A stretch of 64,000 nt of DNA from Gammaproteobacteria bacterium. GTDB taxonomy: Bacteria; Pseudomonadota; Gammaproteobacteria; Eutrophobiales; Eutrophobiaceae. The DNA lies in contig JAJDUB010000073.1 of assembly GCA_022826885.1 (NCBI GenBank), forward strand, positions 65,388 to 129,387. Reading direction: 5' to 3'. The notes beneath the pieces are model-generated. The model made no database searches. It saw nothing but the letters and a program-made list of their open reading frames with translations, and was not told the origin of the DNA. Each line of letters opens with the position of its first letter. The first letter of the stretch is position 1. The position numbers and the translations under genes are program-made. Positions 33,369 to 48,266 of this stretch are shown in pieces.

Positions 33369-34988
33369 ATGCGAATCCACGAATACCTGCTCGATTTCTT
33401 TATGACGCTTTTTGCATTGTCGTCTCTGGCGTTATGGGGGATCGTCCTGTCCGGGGGCTCGTTCAGGGCCTACGCTATCCTGGCGTTGCTGGTCCCACTG
33501 GTTTCCGTTTACCTGGTTTTCATAAACAGTCGGGGACATATTCCTCCCGATCCCGATAATACCGCCCCCGAACGCTACGGAAATCGATTTGGGGTTGAAA
33601 CCATAGCGATCTTTGTGCTGCTTCTGTTGATTTTCTTATCCAAATCCGAACCAGTAACGCTTGTACTGCTATTGGTTGCATTGTTTCTGTTCCTGAGACA
33701 AACAAAGACTCAACCATGGCTTTTCACCTCATCTTCCATTCTGGAAAGATCGCCACTCGTACCCGGCGCCGCGCTGGTGATTGCCGTTACCTATACCCTG
33801 GTTTCACATCGATACGATCCGGACGATGCTCTCTACCTGTTTTACGGACTGCTGCCCCTGGACCAGCCCTTGCAGGAAATGAACCTCTTCCCATTCTACG
33901 ACACGGCCAAGATGACGGTCAGTTACCCGACCATTGAAGCGGTGGCTTCATATTGGACCGGCACCAGTTTCCTGCAGGTGTATTACCTCGTCGTTCCTGC
34001 CCTGGCGGCGATGCTGACCGTACTTGCCTATTACGGGCTGTTTCAGCGGCTCGGCGGCAGTTATGCGGGCGTGTTAACGCTGATGACCGTCATTATTCTG
34101 ATACTGTGGGCTGACAAGCACCAGGCTCCCGGCAATGATACCTTCGTACGATTGTACCAGGGCAAGTCAATATTTTATGCCGTGGTCTGTCCTTACCTCA
34201 TCAGTTCGGCAATCGGTATCCTGACGCGTTTCCCCGGAAGCAGTTTTCGTCTGGCAATGGCCAGCATTACGGGTATCGGCCTGACCCAGTCCGCAATCAT
34301 TTTGATACCCCTGTTTTTTGCGGGCTTGACTGTAACAGCATGGATAATCTACCGGGAACCACTCAGACACGCGCGCTACCTGCCCTTCCTGGTCGGTGGC
34401 GCCTCATTCCTGGTGTTGGGTATCTTTATGACAGCCAGCCTGGGGGGTATTCCTACCGCAAAAAATCTCAGATTTGACACCCTTCACGAAGCCCTTGATT
34501 TCAGGTACGGCGACGGGCTACGCGGATATCTCGGCATTGCAAGTATATGCCTGCTACCCCTGCTTGCACACAATGCTGCCAAACATAAAGCGACTATCGC
34601 GCTGAGCGCCGGACTGGCACTGGTTGTGTTGAATCCAGTCATTGTCTTTCTGGTCGCCAAAATCGCCTGGTCATTAGCCTGGCGCCTGCAATGGCTGCTA
34701 CCGGTAGCGGGGCTGGTGGCTGTAGGAATATATCTTGTGGCTGATTTCATCGCACGCGGCAAGCCGTATTTACGACTGTTGCTTTGCGCCCTGGGTTTGA
34801 TCGGATTTGCCATGCTCGGCCAGACAACATTTTATAAACATAACCGTAATGCCATTGGAATTCCGCAGATCAAACCACCGCCCACCATAAACGGGGTTTT
34901 CGAGCGCCACCACAACGGCCGTTACAAGCTCCACGCCGAATATCTCCTGGAAGACGGGCGTATCTGCATGGCGAACGGATGTTACTGA
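33369..34988 (+). CDS. polytopic membrane protein, possible GT-C-type glycosyltransferase (hypothetical)
   Basis: 539 aa with at least 10 hydrophobic segments. An early loop contains RYDPDDALYLFY, reminiscent of the acidic first-loop motif of GT-C enzymes. I recognise no stronger motif. Confidence 0.4.
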   Translation: MRIHEYLLDFFMTLFALSSLALWGIVLSGGSFRAYAILALLVPLVSVYLVFINSRGHIPPDPDNTAPERYGNRFGVETIAIFVLLLLIFLSKSEPVTLVLLLVALFLFLRQTKTQPWLFTSSSILERSPLVPGAALVIAVTYTLVSHRYDPDDALYLFYGLLPLDQPLQEMNLFPFYDTAKMTVSYPTIEAVASYWTGTSFLQVYYLVVPALAAMLTVLAYYGLFQRLGGSYAGVLTLMTVIILILWADKHQAPGNDTFVRLYQGKSIFYAVVCPYLISSAIGILTRFPGSSFRLAMASITGIGLTQSAIILIPLFFAGLTVTAWIIYREPLRHARYLPFLVGGASFLVLGIFMTASLGGIPTAKNLRFDTLHEALDFRYGDGLRGYLGIASICLLPLLAHNAAKHKATIALSAGLALVVLNPVIVFLVAKIAWSLAWRLQWLLPVAGLVAVGIYLVADFIARGKPYLRLLLCALGLIGFAMLGQTTFYKHNRNAIGIPQIKPPPTINGVFERHHNGRYKLHAEYLLEDGRICMANGCY

Positions 34989-35073
34989 ATGCATTGAACC
35001 GTTGTCGGTAGCTTCGACGGTGGCAAGTTCAAGTCTTAATGCAGAATTTTCAAGTTTGCATTGTATCAAGCAA

Positions 35074-35751
35074 CTACGAAACGGCCTTTATGAATGCGCT
35101 TGTATCGATCTTACCCCAGGCGTAAAGGCGTGCCAGTGCTTCATAGTCCCGGTGAAGGAATCGCATGAGGTTTTTGCGGGCTTTCGATGACAAGGGAGGA
35201 CCTCGCATATCGCTGTTTTCATGTATCTGATATTCGTTGTTAATTCCAAACACTTTCGCTATGTCCTGATTTAACGTTTCCTGCATCAGTACTGCCTCTA
35301 TCTGGTCGGGTCGGCAACGGTCCAAAAGATTAGTAAGATAGAAACTGATATCCATGCGAATATGACCGATCGTCCGCATGGCCTTAACGGCCTCAGGCCT
35401 TGGTATCCCGTCATCATCGTACAGCGATTCGCTCAGCACATTGATGTTGCCGTATTGCGTCAGGGCTTCAAATTCTCCAGGATCGCTATGTCGTTGCTCT
35501 TCGGTAACCACCACCAGTTTGTAGCGCCAGTTAAATGCCGAAATTGTCCGTTCAAGGGGGTTTCTGGCAAGGATGATGTACCTCATGTTCTTCCGGAAGA
35601 CTGGCTGTTGGACGTGAAATATGCGAAGCTCGTCCGCAATCCCTGCCTCCCGCAATGCTGCGTTCAGTGAACCACCGCCACACTTGCCGATACGGACCAG
35701 TGACGTTTGCGTGTGGTGGCCGGCACTTTTCTTACGCTCTATACTAAACAC
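35074..35751 (-). CDS. sulfotransferase-family protein
   Basis: 225 aa. RIGKCGGGSL resembles the 5'-phosphosulfate-binding loop. ILARNPLERTISAFNWRY resembles the RDP.eR..Sa. motif of Sulfotransfer_2-type enzymes. Confidence 0.55.
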   Translation of the reverse strand: MFSIERKKSAGHHTQTSLVRIGKCGGGSLNAALREAGIADELRIFHVQQPVFRKNMRYIILARNPLERTISAFNWRYKLVVVTEEQRHSDPGEFEALTQYGNINVLSESLYDDDGIPRPEAVKAMRTIGHIRMDISFYLTNLLDRCRPDQIEAVLMQETLNQDIAKVFGINNEYQIHENSDMRGPPLSSKARKNLMRFLHRDYEALARLYAWGKIDTSAFIKAVS

Positions 35752-36132
35752 CTGCTATTGCCTCTTGCGTTCTCAGCCGTCTTTAAGTTCCATTCATTTG
35801 GCCGGTGATACCCGATTACAGAGTCTGCCCCTCGGTTGTAGACAGGGGACAAACCATGGACGTGCTGTCCCCTCTGTTGCCAAAAAATAATTGATTTGTG
35901 AGTCTTCCCACATACATGCTGGCAAGAATGCATTACACTGTCAACATGATGGGCGCCCTTCATTTGCATAGCCTGCAGTCAGCTTGATTAGAGAGAGCGG
36001 TCAGCGTCTCTCCGGCCGTTGTGGGCGCCGCAAAACGCAATAAAACACCCCTCAAATGCCCGTTTCAAATCTCTAACACGGAATTTGGGGATAATATAAC
36101 CCACAAATTTGACAACCAGAGGAGATATCTTT

Positions 36133-36345
36133 ATGGACCGTAAATCCGATCTTGACAACCACGCTGATCAACTGAATCCAAATAACGACGCATACTGGGA
36201 TAGCCGAGCGTATGACGGACGCCCGGACGACTGGGAAGAACTTGTAAACGAAGATGAGCATGAGATATCGCAGGCAGATCTCGATAATCATGCTGACCAG
36301 CTTAACCCTAACTCCGACACTTACTCAAAATCGCGCAGCGGGTAG
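36133..36345 (+). CDS. small acidic protein with duplicated DLDNHADQLNPN-D-Y motif (hypothetical)
   Basis: 70 aa from ATG 36133, preceded by GAGGAG 8 nt upstream. The two motif copies are SDLDNHADQLNPNNDAYWDSR and ADLDNHADQLNPNSDTYSKSR. Confidence 0.55.
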   Translation: MDRKSDLDNHADQLNPNNDAYWDSRAYDGRPDDWEELVNEDEHEISQADLDNHADQLNPNSDTYSKSRSG

Positions 36346-36467
36346 GTCTCGCCGACAGTTGACCCCAAGGGATGGGGTCGGACCAACATAACCCTTAATC
36401 GACAGGATTCCCGGATTTGCCCGAAATGACGGCTTCACGTCCCGGGGAAAGAATTAATGCGGGAGAA

Positions 36468-36707
36468 CTATCCTAACGCAATGATGATGCCGGCAAAAAC
36501 GAACAGGGAACCGACCATCCATTTGACAAGACGGGCTTCCAGCCCTGCAATTTCGCTTTTCAGGTCGGACTTTGTCGCCAGCAGGTCGGACTTTGTTGCC
36601 AGTTGCTCCAACTGTGACACTTGAATGACGTCCTCCGATGCCTTGGTTGCGCTCTCCTCCGATGCGCCGGCTTCAATAAATGCCTTGTAGAGTGCGGTAC
36701 TGCTCAA
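36468..36707 (-). CDS. DUF1640/CCDC90-like tail-anchored coiled-coil protein
   Basis: ..LYKAFIEAGASEESATKASEDV..LATKSDLLATKSDLKSEIAGLEARLVKWMVGSLFVFAGIIIALG combines an N-terminal helical region, a coiled coil and a C-terminal TM helix. The proposed TTG start at 36707-36705 forms a TTGA overlap with the upstream stop. The ORF-track start at 36767 would overlap the upstream gene by 64 nt. Confidence 0.55.
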   Translation of the reverse strand: MSSTALYKAFIEAGASEESATKASEDVIQVSQLEQLATKSDLLATKSDLKSEIAGLEARLVKWMVGSLFVFAGIIIALG

Positions 36708-37102
36708 GTCAGCTTGAGCACCGCGACCATCACCGCCAGACCGCTGAGAAAATACCAGGTCATCCACTTGATCATTTCAACCTTGAGCTTTTGCGCGCTG
36801 ACCTCTATATCCTGCCTCGTGGCAAAGTTTTTCAGGTCGTCCTTGGTGGCCATGTTTTGCTTAACCGTTTCAAGGTCGTTCTTAACGATCTCCAGATCGT
36901 CCCTGACGGTCTCAATATCCCGCCGGGTCGCCAGGTTGCTGAGCAGGTCTCCCTGCTCCGCGGCCAGCGTTTCCGCCTGTTGCTCGTTAAACCCGCCGTC
37001 GGTCATTCGTTTCACATACCCGTGGCTGTCAAATATCAGCGTGTCTTTCATTACCGCCTGGTAATGGCCGGTCGTCGCTCCGATTGGTTTCGTTTCGGTC
37101 AT
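36704..37102 (-). CDS. DUF1640/CCDC90-like tail-anchored coiled-coil protein
   Basis: 132 aa from ATG 37102, preceded by GGGAGG. FDSHGYVKRMTDGGFNEQQAETLA..LATRRDIETVRDDLEIVKNDLETVKQNMATKDDLKNF..MIKWMTWYFLSGLAVMVAVLKL shows the same architecture as the downstream paralog. Confidence 0.65.
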   Translation of the reverse strand: MTETKPIGATTGHYQAVMKDTLIFDSHGYVKRMTDGGFNEQQAETLAAEQGDLLSNLATRRDIETVRDDLEIVKNDLETVKQNMATKDDLKNFATRQDIEVSAQKLKVEMIKWMTWYFLSGLAVMVAVLKLT

Positions 37103-37226
37103 TGTAACCTCCCTGCTTGTCCCTGTGGACTGGTAAATATTGATATAAACCTGATTGACGGATGAAGCCGTCAATCCCTGTCTCAACCCTACAGGAGGGG
37201 GGGCCAAGCGTCAACAAAAAAAGACA

Positions 37227-37542
37227 TTCGTACTTTTTTCCCAAAAATGTGAGTTTCCTCACATTTTTGTTGATTTTTTGCTTTTCAGGTTATCTGAAAC
37301 GGATAAAATCATCCTTGCCATAAGGAAACCAGGCGGTGGTCAGTCCGGCACGAACAAGAATAAACAACGCCGGATGACCGGTCGAATGGAATTCGGGATG
37401 TTGTATGCCCGCATGCCCGAGGGCGGCCCGGTTACTGCTTGCCAGGGCCACGGATCAGGGGCAGCCCAAGGGCGCCAGGGGGGTGGATACCTGTCTTCCG
37501 CTTAATGTCACCTCTCCACCCCCTTCTGGCAGGGGCATGACC
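37227..37542. repeat. copy 1 of a ~300-bp bipartite direct repeat (palindrome-bearing left module, variable middle, GC-rich structured right module)
   Basis: Aligns by eye with 38922-39218. The left ~95 bp and right ~157 bp are about 85-90% identical and the middle is divergent. The element ends in ..GGCAGGGGCATGACC in both copies. Confidence 0.85.
37245..37266. promoter_or_regulatory. perfect CRP/Vfr-type consensus palindrome AAATGTGA-N6-TCACATTT
   Basis: AAATGTGAGTTTCCTCACATTT matches all 16 half-site positions of the 22-bp CRP consensus AAATGTGATCTAGATCACATTT. Confidence 0.6.
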
Positions 37543-37567
37543 AGAAATTAATCACATAGAAATAACT

Positions 37568-37595
37568 TTGATTAACTAAAGCTATTTGCTATAGT
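37568..37595 (+). promoter_or_regulatory. candidate sigma70 promoter of the toxin-antitoxin pair
   Basis: TTGATT (37568-37573), a 16-nt spacer, then TATAGT (37590-37595), about 20 nt upstream of the GTG start at 37616. Pattern match only. Confidence 0.35.
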
Positions 37596-37615
37596 TTATA
37601 TAATGGACTAAAGCA

Positions 37616-37873
37616 GTGTATCGATTGATTATACGGAAACAAGCGATTAAGGCATTACAGGGCATGTCAGCCAAGGACTCCGGCCGTATTCGCCAGTTAC
37701 TGGATAGGCTGGCGGAAGAGCCTGAGCGACGCGATATTGATGTCAAGCCGTTACGAGGCAATCGGGGTTTCCGTCTGCGGACAGGTGACTACCGGGTAAT
37801 TTTTGATCGGGACGATCAAACACAAGTGATAGAGATTTTACGTATTGGTCCGCGTGGAGATGTTTATAAATAA
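37616..37873 (+). CDS. type II toxin, RelE/ParE superfamily
   Basis: 85 aa with ..LDRLAEEPERRDIDVKPLRGNRGFRLRTGDYRVIFDRDDQTQVIEILRIGPRGDVY, the classic RelE/ParE C-terminal pattern (R.G.YR.i...d......i..i.hR...Y). Confidence 0.85.
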   Translation: MYRLIIRKQAIKALQGMSAKDSGRIRQLLDRLAEEPERRDIDVKPLRGNRGFRLRTGDYRVIFDRDDQTQVIEILRIGPRGDVYK

Positions 37874-37888
37874 ATTGGGCAACGCATT

Positions 37889-38266
37889 ATGACTGAACCA
37901 CAAATTATTCGCGATAACAGAGGCAACCCGGCGTTCGCTGTAATCCCATGGCAGGAATATCAGCACCTGAAAGCGGGCAGCGCTGACGAGTTGCCAACCG
38001 ACGAAGAACTGTACGACGAAGCCAAATCCAGCACTGAGGAAAGCTTTCCCATTGAGGTAGCTGACCGTCTTGTGGCAGGGGAAAACCCGGTCAAGGTATA
38101 CCGCAACCTGCGAGGCTTGACGCAAACACAGCTCGCGGCGGCTGCGAATATCAATGCGGTTTACCTCTCACAAATTGAAACCGGGAAACGCACCGGGTCG
38201 ATAAAAACCCTGGCCGCCATAGCAAACGCCCTGAATGTCGCCGTGGATGATTTAAGGAAACCCTGA
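37889..38266 (+). CDS. antitoxin with C-terminal XRE-type helix-turn-helix
   Basis: 125 aa. RNLRGLTQTQLAAAANINAVYLSQIETGKRTGSIKTLAAIANALNVAVDDL is a Cro/C1-type HTH. The gene lies 15 nt downstream of the toxin (toxin-first, HigBA-like order). Confidence 0.8.
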   Translation: MTEPQIIRDNRGNPAFAVIPWQEYQHLKAGSADELPTDEELYDEAKSSTEESFPIEVADRLVAGENPVKVYRNLRGLTQTQLAAAANINAVYLSQIETGKRTGSIKTLAAIANALNVAVDDLRKP

Positions 38267-38342
38267 ACAAGCCTGTTCCTGTACCAGTTACGGGACAGAA
38301 ACCGAAGCGGGGTTTAAGATTGTAACACCAGCCGAAACCTTG

Positions 38343-38906
38343 TCAGCTTACTAGCTCGTACTCCTCCGTTTCCTCGCGAATCTCCAATGCATCCCTGGAA
38401 AGCAGGTCGCGGACTGCTTCATAAACTTCGAGATAATCCAATGACTTGCCGGACCGTAGTTGTATAAACCTGATGACGTGCGCCGGAGCGAGTCCGGGCA
38501 GGTTGAGCGACGTGTCAACCTCAAGCGGTCCTGGCTGGGCCTGTAAATCCAGGAAGGTTGCCGTGATTATCCGTCTCTGCGCGCGTCTGCGAATGTTCAA
38601 CTGCCAGAACTCGACCGCTCCCTTATCCCGGTAACTCAGGTACTTCTCTTTCGATTCATGCGTCAGTCCCACCTCAACCACCAGGTCGGATTCAGCCAGG
38701 GCAATTACCTCGTCCCTGCCTGCATGGAAGGCCACGTACTCCGACCCCAGGGAGTTGCGTTTAACCTCCTTCAGTCGTTTGCGCAACCTGTCTTCCACAC
38801 TCTGCAAGGAAGAGTCTTTCGGTAATGCCGTGGCGCTGCACATGATGTCGTCCCTCGATTTGAATAAAAGCTGTGTCAAGTATAGCAGGAAAGCGAAACA
38901 GGCCAT
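38343..38906 (-). CDS. Uma2 (DUF820)-like putative endonuclease
   Basis: SDLVVEVGLTHESKEKYLSYRDKGAVEFWQLN resembles the PD-(D/E)xK core of Uma2 proteins (PDLVVEV.S......D...K...Y...GV.EYW.vd). The start is uncertain; ATG at 38843 is an alternative. Confidence 0.5.
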   Translation of the reverse strand: MACFAFLLYLTQLLFKSRDDIMCSATALPKDSSLQSVEDRLRKRLKEVKRNSLGSEYVAFHAGRDEVIALAESDLVVEVGLTHESKEKYLSYRDKGAVEFWQLNIRRRAQRRIITATFLDLQAQPGPLEVDTSLNLPGLAPAHVIRFIQLRSGKSLDYLEVYEAVRDLLSRDALEIREETEEYELVS

Positions 38907-38921
38907 AAAACAACGCTACGC

Positions 38922-39218
38922 TTCGTACTTTTTTCCCGAAAATGTGAGTTTTCTCACATTTTCGCTGATTTTTTGCTTTTCAGTTTATCCGTGGTGAATA
39001 AAATCATTATTGCCTGAATGAAAGACGGCAACGGCGCTCCAAAATGGAGAACCCGCTAAATGGAATTCGGGTGGTTGTATGCCCGCATGCCCGAGGGCGG
39101 CCCCGGTCAGCTTTCGCCTGGGCCAGGGATCAAGGACAGCCTGAGGGCGCCAAGGGGGGTGGATACCTGTCTTCCACTTAATGTGTTCTCTCCACCCCCC
39201 TCTGGCAGGGGCATGACC
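38922..39218. repeat. copy 2 of the ~300-bp bipartite direct repeat
   Basis: See copy 1. It ends 20 nt before the stop codon of the oxidoreductase-aminotransferase fusion gene. Confidence 0.85.
38940..38961. promoter_or_regulatory. perfect CRP/Vfr-type consensus palindrome AAATGTGA-N6-TCACATTT
   Basis: AAATGTGAGTTTTCTCACATTT has both half-sites perfect. It lies 34 nt upstream of the longest Uma2-like ORF start on the minus strand. Confidence 0.6.
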
Positions 39219-39238
39219 GGTCGTCGGGACGGTAATTC

Positions 39239-41371
39239 TTACAACGCTTGCCGAATAATATCGCAAATCCTGTTTTGCGTTCCCTCCTCCAGGTACGGAT
39301 GCATAGGCAAACTCAGTACCGTTGCCGCTAACCGTTCGGAAACGGATAAATCCGGCGCAGACGGATAGCCGCGATAGGCAGTCTGCCTGTGCAGCGGTAT
39401 CGGGTAGTGCAGCGCGGTCGGAAATCCATTTTTCTTCAACTCCTCGGAAATTGCGTCACGTTCGTTTGATTTAACCGTATATTGCGCCCAGACAGAGGTG
39501 CGCCCCTCACGAACTACCGGAACATCGACCAGGTTTTCAAGCATCGAGGTGTAGCTTTGCGCAACCTGTTTGCGCAGGATGATCTCTTCCGGAAAAACAG
39601 AGAGCTTCTCGATCAATATCGCAGCCTGAATGGTGTCCAGCCTGCCGTTTATGCCGATATTCACGGCGTCGTGTTGATTCGCTCCCTTTCCATGTGCCCG
39701 CGTGCTTTTCAATTTGTCGGCGATTTCGTCGTCATCCGTAAATACCGCACCCCCATCGCCGTAACAGCCCAACGGTTTTGCCGGGAAAAAACTGGTGGTG
39801 GTAAGCTCCCCCAGTGTTCCGACCTTGTTGCCGTCCAATTCGGCGCCGAAACTCTGTGCGCCATCACAGATAACAAACAATCCGCGCTCCTCGGCAAACC
39901 GGTTTATCCCACTGTAATCGGCCGGCTGTCCGAACAGGTCGACCGGAATTATTCCCCTGGGTCTCAGACCATGCCGGACTGACTCGGAGACCGCGGCTTT
40001 CAGGCTTGCCATGTCAAGCAGGAAACAGTCTGCGTCAACATCAACGAAAACAGGTGTCGCCCCCAGCAAGGCGACAACTTCCGCGGTTGCGACGAAAGTG
40101 AACGAAGGAACAAAAATGGCATCACCCGGACCTGTATCATGGGTCATTAATGCCATAAGCAGGGCATCCGTGCCGCTGGCGCAAGTGATGACATGCCCGG
40201 CGCCTGTGAAATCGGACAGCCTTTCCTCAAGCTCCCTGACTTCCGGACCCATGATGTACTGGCCGTGATCGAGTATCTTTTGTATTGCCTGAGGTATCTT
40301 CCCGCCCAATCGTTGTTGCTGCGCCCTGAGATCAACGATAGCCGTTTTATTCAGCGCTGGATTTGCATTATTTATTGCCTGATACGAATGATTCCCGCGG
40401 ATTTCCTGTTCCGATGCCTGTAGTACCTTCAACACGCGGATCGCTTCACGGCCGTCAGTACGGCAGCCTGTCCTTCCCGCAATGCAGTCCAGGAAATGTT
40501 CCAACTCCTGTCGTAACGGCTCAACCGGAGTCACGGTAACTGCCTCGGCTTCAGCTTTGCCGGGCCCGTGCAGGCCGTTTTTACAGAGGAGGTCGTCTTT
40601 ATAAATCAGTAACTTGCGGTCCCATTCCTGGGTATCATTAAAAATTGCCATGCCTTCGTCACCCACGACCACCAGTTCCTGCACCTTGTAAGGGTGCAGC
40701 CAGGAAACAAAAACATGGGCATTCTCCCCACCGGGAAATGACAGGTAGATCGCAGCCACGTCAGCATACCGGGAATGAAGAAAAAACCCGCCTACGGCAG
40801 AAATCCTGTCCGGTTCGTCACCTACCAGCGACAGGATCATGGAAGCGTCATGGGGAACAAAGCTCCAGAGTATATTCTCCTCGCGCCTGACTTTCCCCAA
40901 ATTAGAGCGATGTGCATAGATATTACGCAAACGCCCCAGTTCACCCTGTGCCACCAGTTCCTTCAGCCTGATAAACGCAGGGTGGTATTGCAGGACGTGC
41001 CCTACCATCAACACCCGTGCCTGATTCTTCGACAACCTGTTTAAATCTTCAGCAGCGCCGACATCCATGGCAAGGGGCTTCTCAACAAACACGTGTTTTC
41101 CTGCCAGCAGCACTTTCCTTACAATTTCCGAATGTGTTTCTACCGGTGTCGCGACGGCCACCGCGTCAATATTCGCATCCCGGATCACCTCTTCGAAAGT
41201 GCATGTCCTTACGTTGTACTGTCCACCCGATTGCCGCGCCAGTTCCCGGTCCGAATCGCAGACCGCGGCCAATGCCCCCAGGTCGGAAAAATTGCGCACC
41301 AGGTTCCTGCCCCAGTAACCGCAGCCGACCACGGCCACGCGCGCCGGCGTTTGTTCTGTCATACTCATCAA
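39239..41371 (-). CDS. fusion protein: Gfo/Idh/MocA NAD-dependent sugar oxidoreductase (WbpB-like) plus DegT/DnrJ/EryC1 PLP aminotransferase (WbpE-like)
   Basis: 710 aa in a single ORF. The N-terminal half has VAVVGCGYWGRNLVRNF and the Gfo/Idh/MocA fold. From about aa 345, IVDLRAQQQRLGGKI..ILDHGQYIMGPEVRELE..ITCASGTDALLMAL..TTSFFPAKPLGCYGDGG is DegT-type. Confidence 0.85.
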   Translation of the reverse strand: MMSMTEQTPARVAVVGCGYWGRNLVRNFSDLGALAAVCDSDRELARQSGGQYNVRTCTFEEVIRDANIDAVAVATPVETHSEIVRKVLLAGKHVFVEKPLAMDVGAAEDLNRLSKNQARVLMVGHVLQYHPAFIRLKELVAQGELGRLRNIYAHRSNLGKVRREENILWSFVPHDASMILSLVGDEPDRISAVGGFFLHSRYADVAAIYLSFPGGENAHVFVSWLHPYKVQELVVVGDEGMAIFNDTQEWDRKLLIYKDDLLCKNGLHGPGKAEAEAVTVTPVEPLRQELEHFLDCIAGRTGCRTDGREAIRVLKVLQASEQEIRGNHSYQAINNANPALNKTAIVDLRAQQQRLGGKIPQAIQKILDHGQYIMGPEVRELEERLSDFTGAGHVITCASGTDALLMALMTHDTGPGDAIFVPSFTFVATAEVVALLGATPVFVDVDADCFLLDMASLKAAVSESVRHGLRPRGIIPVDLFGQPADYSGINRFAEERGLFVICDGAQSFGAELDGNKVGTLGELTTTSFFPAKPLGCYGDGGAVFTDDDEIADKLKSTRAHGKGANQHDAVNIGINGRLDTIQAAILIEKLSVFPEEIILRKQVAQSYTSMLENLVDVPVVREGRTSVWAQYTVKSNERDAISEELKKNGFPTALHYPIPLHRQTAYRGYPSAPDLSVSERLAATVLSLPMHPYLEEGTQNRICDIIRQAL

Positions 41372-41419
41372 TAACCCGAATTTAACGCGGAAATATGTCC
41401 CGACCGTAACTGAAATGCG

Positions 41420-42724
41420 CTAACGTCCCACACAGTAATAGTCAAAACCTGCCGCTCGCATCGTATCCGGCTCATAGACGTTGCGCAGGTCAACGAATAC
41501 GTTGCCGCGCATTGCTTTTCTGATCCTGTCCAGGTCCATGCCCCGGTAGACATTCCATTCTGTCATCAATACGGCTGCGTCGGCCCCCAACAAGGCCGCA
41601 TAAATGTCGTCGAAATACAGTACGGAGTCGGGCAACAGCGCCCTGGCCTCCGGCATGGCCTGCGGATCATGTGCCTGTATCGTGGCGCCGTTGTCAATCA
41701 ACTTGGGCAGGATGGACAAGGCAGGCGCATCCCGCATGTCATCGGTTTCCGGTTTAAAGGCCAGGCCCAGTACGGCCAGTGTCCTGCCGTTCCCGCTGCC
41801 GCCCAGGGCTGTCCTTATCTTGCTGACCATGCGCGCCTTTTGTGCCTCATTCACCTCTATCACCGCCTCGACGATACGGCTGGTCACGTTGTTTTCCTGC
41901 GCGATCCTGACCAGCGCCCGGGTATCCTTGGGGAAACAGGAACCGCCGTAACCGGGGCCCGGGTGCAAAAACTTTCTGCCGATCCGCCCGTCAAGTCCTA
42001 TACCCCTGGCAACGGCGTGGACATCCGCGTTCACGGCTTCACACAACGCGGAGATCTCATTGATGAAACTGATCTTGGTGGCCAGGAACGCGTTGGCCGC
42101 GTATTTGATTAACTCGGCGCTTTCCAGGTCGGTCACCACCATGGGCGTTTCAATGAGATTGAGGGGGCGATACAGTTCGCGCAGCACCTGTTCGGCGCGT
42201 TTTGACTCAACGCCGATGACCACGCGGTCCGGGCGCATGAAATCAGCCAGCGCCGCGCCTTCCCGTAAAAACTCGGGATTGGAGGCAACGTCAAATTCGG
42301 CTCCCGGATTCACCTCCCCCACGATTCGCTTGACGTTACGCGCGGTACCCACGGGCACGGTGGACTTGTCCACTATCACCGTATAGCCTTCGAGATGCGG
42401 GGCAATGTCCCTCGCCGCCTGGTATACGTATTTTAAGTCTGCGTGACCGTCGCCGCGTCGGGCCGGTGTCCCGACCGCGATAAAGACCAGGTCACACTGC
42501 GCAATTGTTTCATCATAACCGGCGCGGAAGGACAACCTGCCCTGTGCCTTGTTCTTGTTTATCAGATCCGCCAGGCCCGGTTCATAGATGGGGACGACTC
42601 CCTCCCTGAGTTTATCGATCCTGGCGGAATCGATATCAATGCAGGTTACGCTGGCGCCGAATTCGGCAAAACAGGCGCTCGAGACCAGCCCGACGTAGCC
42701 TGCGCCCACCATCGTAACGTTCAT
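41420..42724 (-). CDS. ugd: UDP-glucose 6-dehydrogenase
   Basis: 434 aa with MVGAGYVGLVSSACFAEFG, PIYEPGL and the catalytic GGSCFPKD. Confidence 0.9.
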   Translation of the reverse strand: MNVTMVGAGYVGLVSSACFAEFGASVTCIDIDSARIDKLREGVVPIYEPGLADLINKNKAQGRLSFRAGYDETIAQCDLVFIAVGTPARRGDGHADLKYVYQAARDIAPHLEGYTVIVDKSTVPVGTARNVKRIVGEVNPGAEFDVASNPEFLREGAALADFMRPDRVVIGVESKRAEQVLRELYRPLNLIETPMVVTDLESAELIKYAANAFLATKISFINEISALCEAVNADVHAVARGIGLDGRIGRKFLHPGPGYGGSCFPKDTRALVRIAQENNVTSRIVEAVIEVNEAQKARMVSKIRTALGGSGNGRTLAVLGLAFKPETDDMRDAPALSILPKLIDNGATIQAHDPQAMPEARALLPDSVLYFDDIYAALLGADAAVLMTEWNVYRGMDLDRIRKAMRGNVFVDLRNVYEPDTMRAAGFDYYCVGR

Positions 42725-42750
42725 GACGGATTACTTCCGGATGTCAGCAT

Positions 42751-43761
42751 TTAACCCACCCTATAGTATCTTTTATACCAGTCAACGAACTGTTTTATCC
42801 CCTGCTCAAGTGAAACCCGGGAGACAAATTTAAATTCCCCAGCCAACCTGGACGAGTCGGATTCGGTGTTAAGCACGTCACCGGGTTGCGCCTCCACAAA
42901 CTCCAGAACAGCTTTTCTGCCGATCTCCGCCTCAAGCATTCTAATATAATCCATGAGGTTGACCGCGTCTTGATTCCCCACGTTGTAAATCCGGTATCTT
43001 GCCGGGCCGGTTGCCGGATCAGGCCGGGTCGCGTCCCAGCCTGCATCCACGCCGGGTGTGTGGTCCGTTATTCTTACCGTTGCCTCCGCCACGTCGTCGA
43101 TATAGGTAAAATCCCTCCGGTGCTCTCCCCGGTTGAATACCTGTATTGGTTCGCCCGCGTATATTTTTTCCGTAAACAGAATGGGGGACATGTCCGGCCT
43201 GCCCCAGGGACCGTAAACGGTAAAGTAGCGCAGCCCGGTCACGGGGATGTCATACAGGCGGCTGTAGCTGTGCGCCATCAATTCGTTGGCGCGCTTCGTC
43301 GCGCCGTAGAGGGAAACCGGGTGCACGGCCGGGTCCGTTTCCGAAAAAGGCAGCTTCTCATTGGCGCCGTACACCGAGCTGGACGAAGCGTACACCAGGT
43401 GTTCCACGCCGGTAGCGCGGCAGCCTTCCAGGATATTCAGGAAGCCCTCGATATTGGCGCTGATGTAGCTGTGGGGATGGGTAATGGAATGGCGCACGCC
43501 CGCCTGCGCGGCCAGGTGCGCCACGCGCCGGGGCGATACCTCCCGGAACAGGTCCGCCGTGCGCGCCGCGTCCGATATATCCACTTTCCTGAAACTGAAG
43601 TTGTCGAATTCCTCCAGTAAAACCAGCCTGTCCTGCTTCAAGCCGGGGTCGTAATAGTCATTCAGGTTATCGACCCCAACGATTTCATCACCCCGCTCCA
43701 GCAGCCGCCTGGACAATGCCGCGCCGATAAACCCGGCGCAACCGGTAACAAGGAATTCCAT
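42751..43761 (-). CDS. NAD-dependent UDP-glucuronate 4-epimerase-like SDR
   Basis: 336 aa with LVTGCAGFIGAAL, VGVDNLNDYYDPGLK, SSSSVYG and YGATKRANE (YxxxK). Its position directly upstream of ugd supports a UDP-GlcA to UDP-GalA role. Confidence 0.8.
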   Translation of the reverse strand: MEFLVTGCAGFIGAALSRRLLERGDEIVGVDNLNDYYDPGLKQDRLVLLEEFDNFSFRKVDISDAARTADLFREVSPRRVAHLAAQAGVRHSITHPHSYISANIEGFLNILEGCRATGVEHLVYASSSSVYGANEKLPFSETDPAVHPVSLYGATKRANELMAHSYSRLYDIPVTGLRYFTVYGPWGRPDMSPILFTEKIYAGEPIQVFNRGEHRRDFTYIDDVAEATVRITDHTPGVDAGWDATRPDPATGPARYRIYNVGNQDAVNLMDYIRMLEAEIGRKAVLEFVEAQPGDVLNTESDSSRLAGEFKFVSRVSLEQGIKQFVDWYKRYYRVG

Positions 43762-43922: not shown

Positions 43923-46900
43923 TTGGCGATTATCAGAGAAGATAACGGGGATGCGAGAGCCGATGATTCAACCCAGTACTCGATAGCGCCCGGCGATGTT
44001 TTTCAGGGAACGCTCGATACCGCCGGCGATACCGACTGGATTAAAATCGAGCTCAGCGCCGGTACGATTTACGACATCAGCTTGGACGAAGTGGAGTCAG
44101 ACCAGTTCAGGCTTTTTAATCCAAATGGGGGTGGTGGCATATATGGCCCCTACCTGTTACCCTACAGTACTCTCTTCAGAGCACCAGACAGTGGCACATA
44201 TTACATCGCTATAGCCAGGACCAATTATGATGACTCTGATAATTACGAGATATCATTCCTCGAGCATCCGCTTTCAATAGCCAGCTACGATGAGATCGCC
44301 AGCTATCTTAAACGCAGCCCGGATGAAAGTTATATATACGATGTTGCGCCCGGCGGTACCCTGACTGCCAATGTCACTGCCCTGACCGAAGACGGGCAAC
44401 AACTTGCCCGGTGGGCGCTTGACGCCTGGACCGATGTAACCGGGATTGAATTCGAATTTGTCGATAATAACGCAAATATTTCTTTTGACGATGATGATTT
44501 AGGGAGTGCTTACAGCTCCTACACTGCAGTAGGCGGAATAAAAGTTTCTTCTCACATCAATGTCGGAGCAGACTGGCTGACCACATACGGATCCGGTATC
44601 GATAGCTTTACCTTCTATGCCTACCTTCATGAGATAGGTCATGCCCTGGGCCTTAACCATCCGGGCCCCTACGATGGGCGATTTCCAGACTCTATTGACA
44701 AGATATTCGGCAACGACTCCTACCAGACGACGGTGATGTCATACTTCAGACAGGATAGTGATAACTTCACCGAAGCCAGTTTCGCTATTCCCGTCACACC
44801 GATGATCGCGGATATTATCGCAATCCAGGATTTATACGGCACTCCGGTAGATATAAACCCCGGTAATACCCTGCATGGGCACGGCTCCAATGTTGAAGGC
44901 TATATGGCTGAATTGTTCGAGAGGTGGACCGGCCAGGGGGATTCATCTTTCGGCAATCCGGTCACATTGACCCTGTATGACAGCGGTGGTATTGACACCC
45001 TGGATCTGAGCACGGACAGTTCCAATCAGCGGGTTGACCTGCGCCCGGAAGGGATCTCCGACGTGTACGGACTGGTCGGCAACCTCATCATTGCGCGGGA
45101 TACGTTGATCGAGAACTTCATCGCCGGTTCCGGGGACGACGTAGTTACCGGCAACGATGAAGCGAATTATCTGCAGGGACGGGGCGGCAACGACGAGTTA
45201 CAAGGTAATGGCGGAAATGATGTGTTGGAAGGCGGCGCCGGCGCCGATCGGCATGAGGGTGGCGCCGGAATGGACTGGGTATCCTACCAGAAATCGAATA
45301 CCGCTGTGACAATCAACCTTGCACAGGGAACGCTGAGGGGAGGTCATGCCGAGGGCGATGTCATTATTGATATCGAAAATGTAATTGGTTCGGATTACGG
45401 CGATGTCCTGGAGGGTGACAGTGGCGCCAACTGGTTCGACGGTGGCCCGGGCAACGATGAGATTTCGGGAAATGGCGGGAATGACGTGCTGGAGGGAAGC
45501 GCGGGAGCGGACCGTCTTAGCGGTGGCGCCGGTGAAGATGTCGCCTCCTACGAGCAATCAGACGCCGCGGTGACAGTCCGTCTCCACTCGGGAGTGGTCC
45601 GGGGTGGCGACGCCGAAGGCGATACGTTCGGAGCGATGGTTACTGTCGGATATACCGACAGCAACGGCGAGGTACAGCAGGAGACCGTCCCCGATATAGA
45701 ACATATCCGCGGCTCTGCATTTGCCGACCTCCTGGCCGGAGACAGCCGCGCCAACCGGCTGGAGGGGGGCGACGGCGCCGACCGGCTGTACGGCGGGCCG
45801 GGCGGTGGCGATGACGAACTTTGGGGCGGCGACGGCGAAGATGCCCTGTTTGGCGGCAGCGGTAACGACGTGCTGGAAGGCGGGCCGGATGCGGACACGC
45901 TCAAGGGTGGATCCGGCGCCGACACGGCCTCTTACGCGCAATCGGATGCCGGGGTGACAGTGCGTCTGTATGATGGCACAGTGCGGGGAGGTCACGCCGA
46001 GGGTGACGACATTGCTGACATTGAGAACGTGAGAGGGTCTGCTCACGCGGATATATTGGAGGGCGATGAAAGCGCCAACCGCCTGGACGGCGCTGATGGT
46101 GCAGATGAGCTTTGGGGCAATGACGGTAATGACATGCTTGACGGGGGCGACGGGGACGACTTACTGGAGGGAGGCGCCGGGTCGGACCGCCTGGACGGGG
46201 GTACCGGGGTTGACTGGCTGTCTTATGCAGGGTCGGATGGGCCGGTGTCGGTAAGGCTCTATGACGGGTATGCCGCGCGCGGCCATGCCGAAGGCGACAT
46301 CATCAGCGGTTTCGAGAACCTGCGAGGCTCCGATTACTCGGATGCCCTGTCGGGGAGTGGCAGGGCAAACCGGCTGGAGGGCGGCGCCGGGGACGACCAG
46401 ATGTGGGGTGGCAGTGGCGATGACGTGCTGGAAGGCGGCGCCGGAGCAGACCGCCTGCACGGTGGATCGGGTGCAGACACAGTGGTCTATTGGAAATCAG
46501 ATGCTGCCATAACAATAAACCTGGAAGGAGGTACCGGCATGGGGGGTCATGCCGAGGGCGACACTATCGCTGAAGTTGAGAACGTGGAAGGCTCGGACCA
46601 TAACGATGTGCTGGAAGGCAATGGCGGTATCAACCTGCTGTATGGCGGTGCAGGCAACGATGAATTGCGCGGCGCCGGAGGTGACGACATACTTGAGGGT
46701 GGCGCCGGCGCTGATCGCCTGGAAGGTGGCGCCGGTATTGACTCGGCAATCTATCAGAGTTCTAACGAGGCAGTAACTGTAAACATCAGCGACGGCACGG
46801 CAACGGGAGGTCACGCAGAAGGCGATGTAATTCTCGGCGTTGAAATAATCATCGGCTCAGAATATGGCGATACCCTGATCGGGGGGGACGGAACTGACCG

Positions 46901-48266
46901 GCTTGATGGCGATGGTGGTGACGACATTCTGGAAGGTGGAGCCGGCGCCGACCGGCTGGAGGGCGGCGCCGGCATGGATACGGCAGTCTATCGGAATTCG
47001 AATGCAGCGATCACGGTTAATCTCGGCAACGGCACACTGATGGGAGGCCATGCCGAGGGTGATGTAATAATCAATATCGAGGGTATAGAAGGATCCGCTT
47101 ACGACGATGAGTTGACAGGCGATAACGGTCCCAACAGGCTGGAGGGCGGCGATGGTGACGATGAACTCAGGGGAGGTGACGGTAACGACCAGCTCCTTGG
47201 TGGCGGCGGTAACGACCTGCTGGAGGGAGGGGAGGATATAGATTTACTGGACGGCGGGCCGGGTACAGACACCGTGTCTTATGAAAATTCAACATTATCG
47301 GTAGATGTATCTCTGCTGTTTAACGGAGCTTCGACATTCAACTACAACGACGGGGAGGAACTTATCGACATTGAAAACGTAATCGGGTCTGATTACGGGG
47401 ATATTCTACGGGGTGATAGCGGTATCAATGAAATATATGGGGGCGGGGGTAACGATAACATTAACGGCCTCGCCGGTGATGACAGGCTTTTCGGTGAAGC
47501 CGGCGATGACCAGCTATGGGGACAGGCCGGCGCAGACCAGTTGCACGGCGGAGAGGGCGTAGATACGGTGGTGTATTGGTTTTCTGACGAAGCGGTGACG
47601 GTGAATCTCAAGGACGGCACGGCTCAGGGAGGTCACGCCGATGGTGATGTGCTTGTGGGTATCGAGAACCTGTGGGGGTCCGAGCATGATGACATATTGA
47701 CTGGCGACCATGGCGCCAACCGCCTGATTGCAGAACTCGGAAACAACGAATTCTACGGCAACGGTGGAGATGATGTGCTGGAAAGCGGCGCCGGCGCCGA
47801 CCTGCTGGACGGTGGTGAGGGCATGGATACGTTATCCTATAAGAGGTCAAGTGAAGGCGTGACGGTGAGCCTGTTGGAAGGCACCGCAGTGGGAGGTCAT
47901 GCGGAGGGTGATGTCTTTGTCAACGTTGAAAACATGGAAGGGTCTTTCCACGATGATGTACTGGTGGGTGATGACAAAGCTAACCGGCTATCGGGCTGGG
48001 TCGGTAACGACGAACTGGAAGGCGGAGAAGGCGCTGACCATTTCATATTCTCGTCCGGCAATAAAAACAGCACCATTCTGGATTTTACCGACAATGAGGA
48101 CTTGATAGACCTTACGGCCTTCCGGAATATTTCCGGCTTTGATAATCTCACCATAACATCTGACTCGGACGGCGTCACCATAAACCTGAGGGCCTACCGG
48201 GGGGGAACCATCCTGCTCGAGGGCTTCGACATCGCCAACCTCGACGCCTCCGACTTCATTTTCTGA
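43923..48266 (+). CDS. giant serralysin-type (M10B metzincin) zinc metalloprotease with about 1000 aa of RTX repeats and a C-terminal T1SS-type tail
   Basis: 1447 aa. It starts at TTG, preceded by GGAG. HEIGHALGLNH (44628-44660) and the Met-turn VMSYF mark the protease. From about 45135 to 48080 there are dozens of GGxGxDxL nonapeptides arranged in about ten larger units containing GGHAEGD.I..IEN..GS. The tail is ..ILLEGFDIANLDASDFIF. Confidence 0.88.
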   Translation: MAIIREDNGDARADDSTQYSIAPGDVFQGTLDTAGDTDWIKIELSAGTIYDISLDEVESDQFRLFNPNGGGGIYGPYLLPYSTLFRAPDSGTYYIAIARTNYDDSDNYEISFLEHPLSIASYDEIASYLKRSPDESYIYDVAPGGTLTANVTALTEDGQQLARWALDAWTDVTGIEFEFVDNNANISFDDDDLGSAYSSYTAVGGIKVSSHINVGADWLTTYGSGIDSFTFYAYLHEIGHALGLNHPGPYDGRFPDSIDKIFGNDSYQTTVMSYFRQDSDNFTEASFAIPVTPMIADIIAIQDLYGTPVDINPGNTLHGHGSNVEGYMAELFERWTGQGDSSFGNPVTLTLYDSGGIDTLDLSTDSSNQRVDLRPEGISDVYGLVGNLIIARDTLIENFIAGSGDDVVTGNDEANYLQGRGGNDELQGNGGNDVLEGGAGADRHEGGAGMDWVSYQKSNTAVTINLAQGTLRGGHAEGDVIIDIENVIGSDYGDVLEGDSGANWFDGGPGNDEISGNGGNDVLEGSAGADRLSGGAGEDVASYEQSDAAVTVRLHSGVVRGGDAEGDTFGAMVTVGYTDSNGEVQQETVPDIEHIRGSAFADLLAGDSRANRLEGGDGADRLYGGPGGGDDELWGGDGEDALFGGSGNDVLEGGPDADTLKGGSGADTASYAQSDAGVTVRLYDGTVRGGHAEGDDIADIENVRGSAHADILEGDESANRLDGADGADELWGNDGNDMLDGGDGDDLLEGGAGSDRLDGGTGVDWLSYAGSDGPVSVRLYDGYAARGHAEGDIISGFENLRGSDYSDALSGSGRANRLEGGAGDDQMWGGSGDDVLEGGAGADRLHGGSGADTVVYWKSDAAITINLEGGTGMGGHAEGDTIAEVENVEGSDHNDVLEGNGGINLLYGGAGNDELRGAGGDDILEGGAGADRLEGGAGIDSAIYQSSNEAVTVNISDGTATGGHAEGDVILGVEIIIGSEYGDTLIGGDGTDRLDGDGGDDILEGGAGADRLEGGAGMDTAVYRNSNAAITVNLGNGTLMGGHAEGDVIINIEGIEGSAYDDELTGDNGPNRLEGGDGDDELRGGDGNDQLLGGGGNDLLEGGEDIDLLDGGPGTDTVSYENSTLSVDVSLLFNGASTFNYNDGEELIDIENVIGSDYGDILRGDSGINEIYGGGGNDNINGLAGDDRLFGEAGDDQLWGQAGADQLHGGEGVDTVVYWFSDEAVTVNLKDGTAQGGHADGDVLVGIENLWGSEHDDILTGDHGANRLIAELGNNEFYGNGGDDVLESGAGADLLDGGEGMDTLSYKRSSEGVTVSLLEGTAVGGHAEGDVFVNVENMEGSFHDDVLVGDDKANRLSGWVGNDELEGGEGADHFIFSSGNKNSTILDFTDNEDLIDLTAFRNISGFDNLTITSDSDGVTINLRAYRGGTILLEGFDIANLDASDFIF

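Follow-up and report, generated by a model that had tools for sequence, protein, structure and literature searches.

A stretch of DNA of 64,000 nt from an uncultured gammaproteobacterium (the window; all coordinates below are positions in it unless a locus is named) carries two direct copies of a bipartite intergenic element. A consensus CRP-type site and a sigma-70-type promoter are followed in each copy by a variable segment and a GC-rich right module. The element belongs to a repeat family with a common promoter signature, has no coding potential, and is independent of any one neighboring gene. We tentatively propose that each copy is a self-contained, lineage-specific gene for a regulatory non-coding RNA that is read on the plus strand. 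Our confidence in this proposal stays a little below even because a discrete, functional, and folded RNA is something that we infer.

Layout and promoter signature of the element

The two copies had been described in the original prediction, which was made from the sequence of the window, as direct repeats with a conserved left module, a diverged middle, and a conserved right module. This description was confirmed by a repeat search and by pairwise alignment. The repeat search returned four collinear blocks, pairing 37227-37328 with 38922-39023 (84% identity), 37372-37429 with 39046-39103 (86%), 37427-37483 with 39102-39158 (77%), and 37477-37542 with 39153-39218 (92%). The pairwise alignment showed that the left module is conserved, as is a right module of ~158 nt running from AATGGAATTCGGG to GGCAGGGGCATGACC, whereas the middle has been replaced in copy 2 by a shorter one. 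A 24-nt palindrome of the left module and a 27-mer of the right module each occurred exactly twice in the window, and neither was matched in any of 100 shuffles.

Further copies were sought in loci fetched from related contigs, metagenome-assembled genomes (MAGs), and database records (numbered L001-L050). Over these loci, nhmmer detected 11 distinct full copies, the two of the window and nine others, and one truncated copy. Full copies were 295-318 bp long, and the nine that were compared with each other diverged pairwise by ~9-30%. Both ends of the element were fuzzy. Weak homology continued ~20 nt beyond the left end of copy 1 and for 20-45 nt in some subfamilies, and the right end was followed by no fewer than three different 3' extensions. 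One 3' extension, ACCGGGAAACGCACAGAC..., was common to L050, L037, and L046.

The left module carries the evidence for the direction of reading. On the plus strand, the 22-bp CRP consensus AAATGTGA-N6-TCACATTT was exact in nine of the 11 full copies and contained a single mismatch in the other two. The 22-mer represents the full consensus including the AAA/TTT flanks, and the two element sites are the only exact TGTGA-N6-TCACA sites in the 64 kb of the window. After the CRP-type site, 9-10 nt are followed by TTTTGC and then by TTTTCA in every full copy, TTTTCA being invariant. A spacer of 16 nt, fixed in length and variable in sequence at about ten positions, leads to TAAAAT, which was present in ten copies and replaced by TAAACT in the remaining one. 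Such a spacer of fixed length and free sequence between conserved hexamers is the signature of a sigma-70 promoter. The distance from the center of the CRP-type site to the first base of TAAAAT was 48.5-49.5 nt in 11 of 11 copies, which would put the center at about -60.5 to -61.5 if transcription started 6-7 nt past the hexamer. At class I CRP promoters the site is centered near -61.5, as at lac P1, or else near -71.5, -82.5, or -92.5, on one and the same face of the helix. Thus, the two sequence features of a class I CRP-dependent sigma-70 promoter, a consensus 22-mer and a spacing near -61.5, were both found. The left module is therefore probably a rightward promoter, and we infer from the sequence of the site that it depends on CRP. 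Because the signature lies on the plus strand with class I spacing in all 11 full copies, the unit should be read rightwards.

On this basis the following mechanism can be envisaged. A CRP-family regulator would bind the palindromic site, centered ~61 bp upstream of the start, and from this class I position would aid RNA polymerase at a promoter with a poor -35 hexamer (TTTTCA) and a good -10 hexamer (TAAAAT). The resulting transcript of at least ~225 nt would carry a 5' hairpin of freely changing sequence, and its 3' part would form a GC-rich domain in which the P1 helix (UAUGCCC/GGGCAUG) encloses a branched P2 arm and a long P3 hairpin, the latter with ~27 nt in its loop. The RNA would then act in trans, by base pairing or by protein binding. 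In addition, the direct-repeat copies would serve homologous recombination, through which genes between copies could be gained, lost, or reshuffled. The element has two properties of a small RNA (sRNA) gene, its own predicted promoter and independence from a particular downstream gene. If it is transcribed, it would be an unannotated lineage-specific regulatory RNA under cAMP-receptor-type control, and, given its position inside an exopolysaccharide cluster of an uncultured gammaproteobacterium, it might connect carbon status with surface or accessory functions.

The palindrome may also have a second role. In copy 1, the 22-mer can form a 12-bp AT-rich hairpin of -14.1 kcal/mol, and it may act as a terminator for plus-strand genes upstream. 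Separately, a degenerate relative of the element palindrome and its flanks, reading CCAAAAAATAATTGATTTGTGAGTCTTCCCACATACATGCTGG, was noted at 35897-35912. This site lies just past a GC-rich hairpin and upstream of a minus-strand open reading frame (ORF) of 225 aa, and it is kept at the orthologous place in L038 (11880-11895), L039, L041, and L043. The putative regulator of the element may have a further site here, or the sequence may be left over from the left end of an element.

Predicted fold, coding potential, and distribution

Minimum-free-energy folds of both window copies contained the P1 pairing UAUGCCC/GGGCAUG and a hairpin GGGGGGUGGA...UCCACCCCC, and the P3 hairpin GGGGGGTGGA...TCCACCCCC was likewise present in such folds. 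The closing ATGCCC...GGGCAT pairing and the long-loop hairpin of the original prediction were thus borne out in both copies. RNAalifold yielded one consensus fold for all copies, with a P1 of 7 bp that closes the right module, a P2 arm that branches, and a long P3 hairpin whose loop has ~27 nt. The fold comprises 48 pairs, and 95.0% of the alignment cells were paired as compared with 94.9% in shuffles, the stems having diverged too little for this measure to decide. Three versions of the middle segment, unrelated in sequence, each folded into a stable hairpin (z = -2.2 to -4.0), the copy 2 hairpin being an apically shortened form of the L047 version. With most references, variable columns favored the unpaired positions of single-sequence folds (odds ratio 0.29-0.5). 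Plus-strand stem transitions counted from the alignment table comprised ~9 G-U versus ~4 A-C events, a difference that is not significant.

Several results weigh against a discrete folded transcript. Covariation was absent: the RNAalifold covariation term was +0.3, and over the 11 copies one pair had changed on both sides as compared with 0.7 expected from shuffling. Folding energies of the whole element were unremarkable, with z = -1.5 and -1.3 on the plus strand and -0.6 and -0.9 on the minus strand. The enrichment of variation in loops was seen with minus-strand folds too and could simply reflect conserved GC-rich blocks. The palindrome, with the T-run behind it, also scored as a terminator-like AT-rich hairpin, from which its possible terminator role derives. 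Finally, a terminator scan revealed no plus-strand intrinsic terminator downstream of the right module, P3 being followed by only 2-3 U. The 3' end is thus undefined, and read-through into downstream genes is possible.

These results also bear on the structural claims made earlier. A module of the element had been called rich in hairpins, but the folding energies of the element as a whole are not unusual for its base composition. A compensatory swap of CTG...CAG for CAG...CTG had been put forward as a structure-preserving substitution. This swap is broken in five of 11 copies (CAG...CAG or CUG...CCG), and it falls in a region that the consensus fold treats as a variable loop. With the swap not conserved and covariation among the 11 copies no higher than in shuffled controls, the argument from structure-preserving substitutions was not supported. 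A candidate structured RNA is nevertheless still the best reading of the element, as originally suggested. Because covariation is absent and the three observations in favor of structure are weak, the computed consensus fold is regarded as plausible but unproven.

No reading frame was conserved among the copies; indels shift every frame, and no start codon is kept. For instance, the ATG of an ORF beginning MEFG... is lost in L049. The only database "homologues" of element ORFs were other translated copies of the element. A protein-coding gene was rejected on the grounds that all frames are broken by indels, in agreement with the earlier view that the element is non-coding. A short minus-strand peptide across the promoter (MILS...KSKKS.KM) was likewise discarded; it has no ribosome-binding site, it is lysine-rich, and the residues that vary in it map to the promoter spacer. 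At least six database proteins (P0001-P0003 and P0051-P0053) as well as L001:1-279 were found to be wholly or partly translated element in various frames. Spurious ORFs from a non-coding element are thus present in public protein collections.

Because gene callers sometimes call ORFs across the element, translated copies were used as protein queries and the contigs of the matches were fetched. By this route six ORF matches were obtained among 5.8 billion proteins, leading to contigs with new copies, and one further contig was fetched through an antitoxin variant. A scan with a 20-mer of the P3 hairpin matched one of 185,579 species-representative genomes. The match was a true copy (L037:1668-1987) on OZ244846.1, a gammaproteobacterial MAG chromosome, and this genome is a close relative of the source genome. 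The core 20-mer GCCCGCATGCCCGAGGGCGG detected no true copy among 241 million JGI metagenome records; its 35 matching loci were all coding sequence for an ARMPEGG peptide. These loci (L002-L036) are unrelated metagenome genes and constitute a trap for DNA word searches with the element. The recurrent group among them that contains ARMPEGGMFV presumably encodes aminotransferases. The same 20-mer had no match in viral contigs, distant blastn searches of plasmid and phage collections showed no similarity to the element, two proteins of the window had no exact counterpart among recorded proteins, and no papers naming the assemblies or runs were found.

Known RNA families were searched in parallel. 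At the gathering threshold, Rfam 15 gave no match in the element and only four tRNAs elsewhere in the window. When 37000-39500 was scanned at E values up to 10, nothing was found on the right module, and the sole match in the element was psm_mec on the palindrome, a chance match with 21 bits versus a gathering score of 85. ARAGORN reported neither a tRNA nor a tmRNA. The original prediction had been unable to assign the element to a known RNA family and had suggested an Rfam scan; at both thresholds the outcome was the same, with no family matched. The families covered in this way include riboswitches, RNase P, tmRNA, SRP, 6S, group II introns, ribozymes, Csr/Rsm, and sRNA-Xcc1. Taken together, the scans point to a narrow distribution in one uncultured gammaproteobacterial lineage.

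Several of the family members are partial or composite. L050 is the truncated copy and consists of the right module only, beginning within the 5' strand of P1. At L050:174-701 a 158-aa ORF runs at its 3' end into this right module, and the last ~30 residues of the database protein P0053 are translated element. Beside one copy of the Uma2-like gene, L049_a is a remnant of only the first ~25 nt. The L047 copy is a mosaic with a left part resembling copy 2 and a right part resembling L045.

Features of the two window copies and of the genes beside them
Feature	Position	Strand	Details
Copy 1	37227-37545	+	Upstream T-tract, CRP-type site, promoter, variable hairpin, GC-rich right module
CRP-type 22-mer, copy 1	37245-37266		AAATGTGAgtttccTCACATTT; center 37255.5
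Sigma-70-type promoter, copy 1	37282-37309	+	TTTTCA-16-TAAAAT; putative start near 37316-37317; CRP center at about -61
Variable middle hairpin, copy 1	37333-37385	+	Predicted; -19.6 kcal/mol, z = -2.45
Right module, copy 1	37385-37542	+	Predicted P1 37404-37410/37533-37539; P2 arm ~37415-37473; P3 37474-37530, loop ~27 nt
ParE-toxin/HTH_3-antitoxin pair	37616-38266	+	Between the two copies; own predicted promoter 37568-37595
Uma2-like gene, internally deleted copy	38343-38843	-	Divergent, left of copy 2; no Pfam hit
Copy 2	38922-39221	+	Middle hairpin shortened; ortholog L047:11368-11690
CRP-type 22-mer, copy 2	38940-38961		AAATGTGAgttttcTCACATTT; center 38950.5
Sigma-70-type promoter, copy 2	38977-39004	+	TTTTCA-16-TAAAAT; putative start near 39011-39012
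Variable middle hairpin, copy 2	39027-39060	+	Predicted; -10.8 kcal/mol, z = -2.15; sequence unrelated to copy 1
Right module, copy 2	39059-39218	+	Same predicted P1/P2/P3 architecture

Genomic context and rival explanations

Copy 1 and its orthologs (the "a" copies of L038-L044) precede a pair of genes for a ParE toxin and a helix-turn-helix (HTH) antitoxin. Element and pair form one block shared with L042 at 85% identity, and the homology begins exactly at the left end of the element and ends at the stop codon of the antitoxin gene. A second copy stands directly after the antitoxin gene in L042 and L040, and in the window copy 2 follows after the intervening Uma2-like gene. Copies thus bracket the ParE-HTH pair in three strains (window, L040, and L042). 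Other copies precede non-homologous genes encoding DUF6338, AAA-ATPase/PDDEXK_9, a DDE_Tnp_1_assoc fragment, or a 78-aa ORF. Copy 2 and its L047 ortholog, which lies in GCA_022821755.1, face the 3' end of a convergent DegT-fusion gene, the element being 84% and the gene 78% identical between them. The L037 copy likewise lies between convergent genes, and the setting of L050 is convergent as well. These convergent contexts and unrelated downstream genes rule out a riboswitch or leader of a single gene family. The element was also rejected as an operator of the neighboring HTH antitoxin, since copies are also found away from the pair, for which a separate promoter region is present.

Recognizable signs of mobility were not obtained. 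When the first 50 nt of each copy were compared with the reverse complement of its last 50 nt, the longest exact match was 4-6 nt in all cases, i.e. terminal inverted repeats were lacking. Target-site duplications were not found either, the flanks sharing only words of 3-5 nt that differed from copy to copy. The attC cores GTTRRRY/RYYYAAC were absent from all 11 copies, and no integrase was present among the ten neighboring proteins scanned, the rest of the window not having been scanned for intI. The genes between the window copies are in mixed orientation. A miniature inverted-repeat transposable element (MITE) or insertion sequence (IS) end was rejected for want of terminal inverted repeats and target duplications, IS200/IS605-type ends were rejected because the left hairpin shows no sequence relationship to the right one, and an attC or integron cassette site was rejected for want of cores and for its wrong length. 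The original prediction had already found no resemblance to attC, and the missing core sites and the length of ~315 bp agree with it. An indel of 561 bp beside the right end of copy b proved to be a simple microhomology deletion and was dismissed as evidence of mobility. As judged from these sequences, the pattern is that of a hot spot in which copies were duplicated and recombined by homology rather than transposed, and the direct repeats are probably substrates for homologous recombination around accessory genes. The alternative of a cassette boundary, also raised originally, was upheld insofar as homology starts at the element left end and the ParE-HTH pair is bracketed in three strains, but no features of a recombinase or recombination site were found. 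Copies that flank a toxin-antitoxin pair provide a simple route for gene gain and loss in a hot spot.

The main rival to an RNA gene is a portable promoter with its leader, i.e. a copied cassette that confers CRP-type control on any downstream gene and whose right module is a mere 5' untranslated region (UTR), perhaps stabilizing or insulating but without a role in trans. We consider this rather doubtful. It draws on the same promoter evidence as the RNA gene, and it would account for a right module that is not followed by a terminator and for the inheritance of element and ParE-HTH pair as one block with homology from the exact left end. Near-identical promoters reused before unrelated genes are documented in prokaryotes (PMC3575422), and this precedent favors the portable leader. 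A co-directional gene 26-300 nt downstream was present in six of nine contexts, but this is no more than expected by chance, and three contexts (copy 2/L047, L037, and L050) have no co-directional downstream gene at all. The convergent context of copy 2 and L047 is moreover conserved between two genomes. The ParE-HTH pair, for its part, has a strong predicted promoter of its own between the element and the toxin gene. Furthermore, the 158-nt right module is as conserved as the promoter, which a passive leader would not require.

The element might instead act as DNA, as a remnant or site of mobile or recombining elements (e.g. an island junction, a recombinase target, or a non-autonomous transposon). 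On this view the hairpins function at the DNA level, and the motifs that resemble a promoter either are incidental or form an outward-facing promoter. Such a role appears improbable. It is in keeping with the hypervariable accessory regions in which copies lie beside toxin-antitoxin pairs, the multicopy Uma2-like gene, and transposase fragments, and with the truncated remnants (right module only in L050, ~25 nt in L049_a) and mosaic copies. Blocks of homology between strains start or stop at element ends, and the right end of copy b borders on the 561-bp indel, but this indel is the microhomology deletion mentioned above, and the ends of the element are fuzzy, with a left end that decays over ~20-45 nt and three 3' extensions. 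Terminal inverted repeats (longest 4-6 nt), target duplications, and attC cores are lacking, and no integrase or transposase is consistently adjacent. A conserved -35, a variable spacer, and a conserved -10 are unexpected for a recombination site.

A special case of the RNA gene would be a Csr/Rsm-type sponge that sequesters a CsrA-like protein via A(N)GGA loop motifs, and we regard it as very unlikely. ANGGA occurred three to four times per transcript versus about one expected (p = 0.01-0.1 per copy, the copies not being independent), and AAGGA, AUGGA, and ACGGA fall into a hairpin loop, a triloop, and an internal loop of the consensus folds. Total GGA was, however, not enriched, with 5-10 observed versus 4-6 expected. 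The motifs are lost in some copies, L049 having AGA for GGA and copy 2 and L047 having AAUGAAAG, and known sponges have many more sites. The palindrome half-site TGTGAG resembles what we take to be the left half of the UvrY box of E. coli csrB, which would suit a sponge, but TGTGAG and CTCACA are spaced by N4 in exact CRP geometry, not by the N6 of GacA/UvrY boxes. A GacA/UvrY box (TGTAAG-N6-CTTACA) was rejected because of this hexamer spacing. No Csr/Rsm model of Rfam matched even at E = 10.

The original prediction had placed each copy in minus orientation immediately upstream of a minus-strand gene, so that it would be an upstream region or 5' UTR regulating the gene on its left, the DUF1640 pair or the Uma2-like gene. 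This is scarcely credible. Both window copies do have a minus-strand gene on the left, and at window/L047 and, independently, at L049 the Uma2-like gene is divergent beside the element. The copies have, however, no promoter-like minus-strand site in common, whereas the promoter on the plus strand is present in 11 of 11 full copies, and copies of relatives lie between convergent genes or upstream of plus-strand genes. A terminator-like minus-strand hairpin at 37176-37153 separates copy 1 from the DUF1640 gene. The left gene is on the plus strand in L037, L045, and L046, the b copies of L042 and L040 lie downstream of a plus-strand HTH gene, and three further Uma2-like copies of L049 are without a full element.

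An RNA gene read on the plus strand is therefore still preferred. Family copies occur in accessory-gene hot spots with toxin-antitoxin pairs, the Uma2-like gene, and transposase fragments. It is conceivable, though very improbable, that the right module is the RNA part of an undescribed system that is active in cassette turnover at such hot spots. Such an RNA might work with the neighboring multicopy Uma2-like gene, which is nuclease-like, or it might mark or guide recombination where cassettes join.

Some observations were made on the surrounding genes. The stretch 33369-43761, from a DUF6077 gene to a GFO/DegT fusion gene within a polysaccharide cluster of the PEP-CTERM/XrtA type, is hypervariable in comparison with L038-L044 and L047. 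It contains genes for HicB, Fic, NYN, DUF1902, YjaZ, IS110, and rve and thus constitutes an accessory hot spot inside a biosynthetic cluster. The strong predicted promoter of the ParE-HTH pair reads TTGATT-16-TATAGT with TG ahead of the -10. The direct repeat ACTAAAGC occurs twice in 37568-37615, the promoter region of the pair, and may be the antitoxin operator. The Uma2-like gene belongs to a multicopy family of 269 aa. One member is L047:10455-11264, and four copies, 85-93% identical, are located within 7 kb of L049 (7476-8285, 8964-9773, 13466-14275, and 10846-11061). The window copy has an in-frame deletion of ~100 residues (56-155), and its start is most likely at 38843 (MCSATALP..., preceded by a putative GAGGGA ribosome-binding site), not at 38906. 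At 36557-36852, the 24-nt motif TTTTCAGGTCGGACTTTGTCGCCA is found three times within and between two small DUF1640/CCDC90-like genes, which suggests a tandemly duplicated pair of coiled-coil genes. The upstream gene of this pair probably starts at 37103 after a GGGAGG site, not at 37207. Directly after the polysaccharide genes, 43923-48266 on the plus strand encodes a serralysin/RTX-repeat protein of 1447 aa, and the second half of this gene exhibits a strong local GC skew (+0.26 at 46001-48000).

Comparison with known systems

Small RNA genes activated by CRP-cAMP are known in enterobacteria, e.g. CyaR. The element resembles these genes and class I promoters in being a stand-alone unit with a consensus CRP site and a sigma-70 promoter with a weak -35, and its site and promoter are as far apart as in class I activation, for instance at lac P1. 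Like CyaR-type genes, it is not bound to a particular downstream gene. Unlike CyaR, it has no sequence or Rfam similarity, and its predicted transcript is GC-rich and ~225 nt or more in length as compared with ~85 nt. It also differs from CyaR in lacking a Rho-independent terminator, in being multicopy, and in residing in accessory regions, and its CRP site is putative.

CsrB, RsmY, and RsmZ share with the element the arrangement of a stand-alone predicted RNA behind a palindromic activator site and a few A(N)GGA motifs in predicted loops. The element differs in that GGA is not enriched, the motifs are not invariant, the palindrome has CRP-type spacing, and no covariance model matches.

Integron attC sites and the repeats of Vibrio (VCRs) are similar in being direct repeats between small accessory genes, including toxin-antitoxin pairs. 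The element is, however, ~315 bp rather than 57-141 bp long, lacks R''/R' cores, and is not an imperfect palindrome over the whole unit. In contrast to integron cassettes, the intervening genes are in mixed orientation, and no integrase was detected among the ten neighboring proteins that were scanned. Correia elements, ERIC sequences, and other MITEs are, like the element, short multicopy intergenic repeats with a promoter and hairpins; the element is set apart from them by ends that are fuzzy, not sharp, and by the lack of terminal inverted repeats and target duplications.

The reused or "putative mobile" promoters described in the report cited above (PMC3575422) are comparable in that similar intergenic promoter segments stand before unrelated genes in related genomes. 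Unlike those promoters as they are presented there, the element continues ~230 nt past its promoter into a conserved GC-rich module and also occurs without a downstream gene. Although the family is undescribed, its kind is familiar, namely sRNA-like repeats that are restricted to a lineage and carry a canonical promoter.

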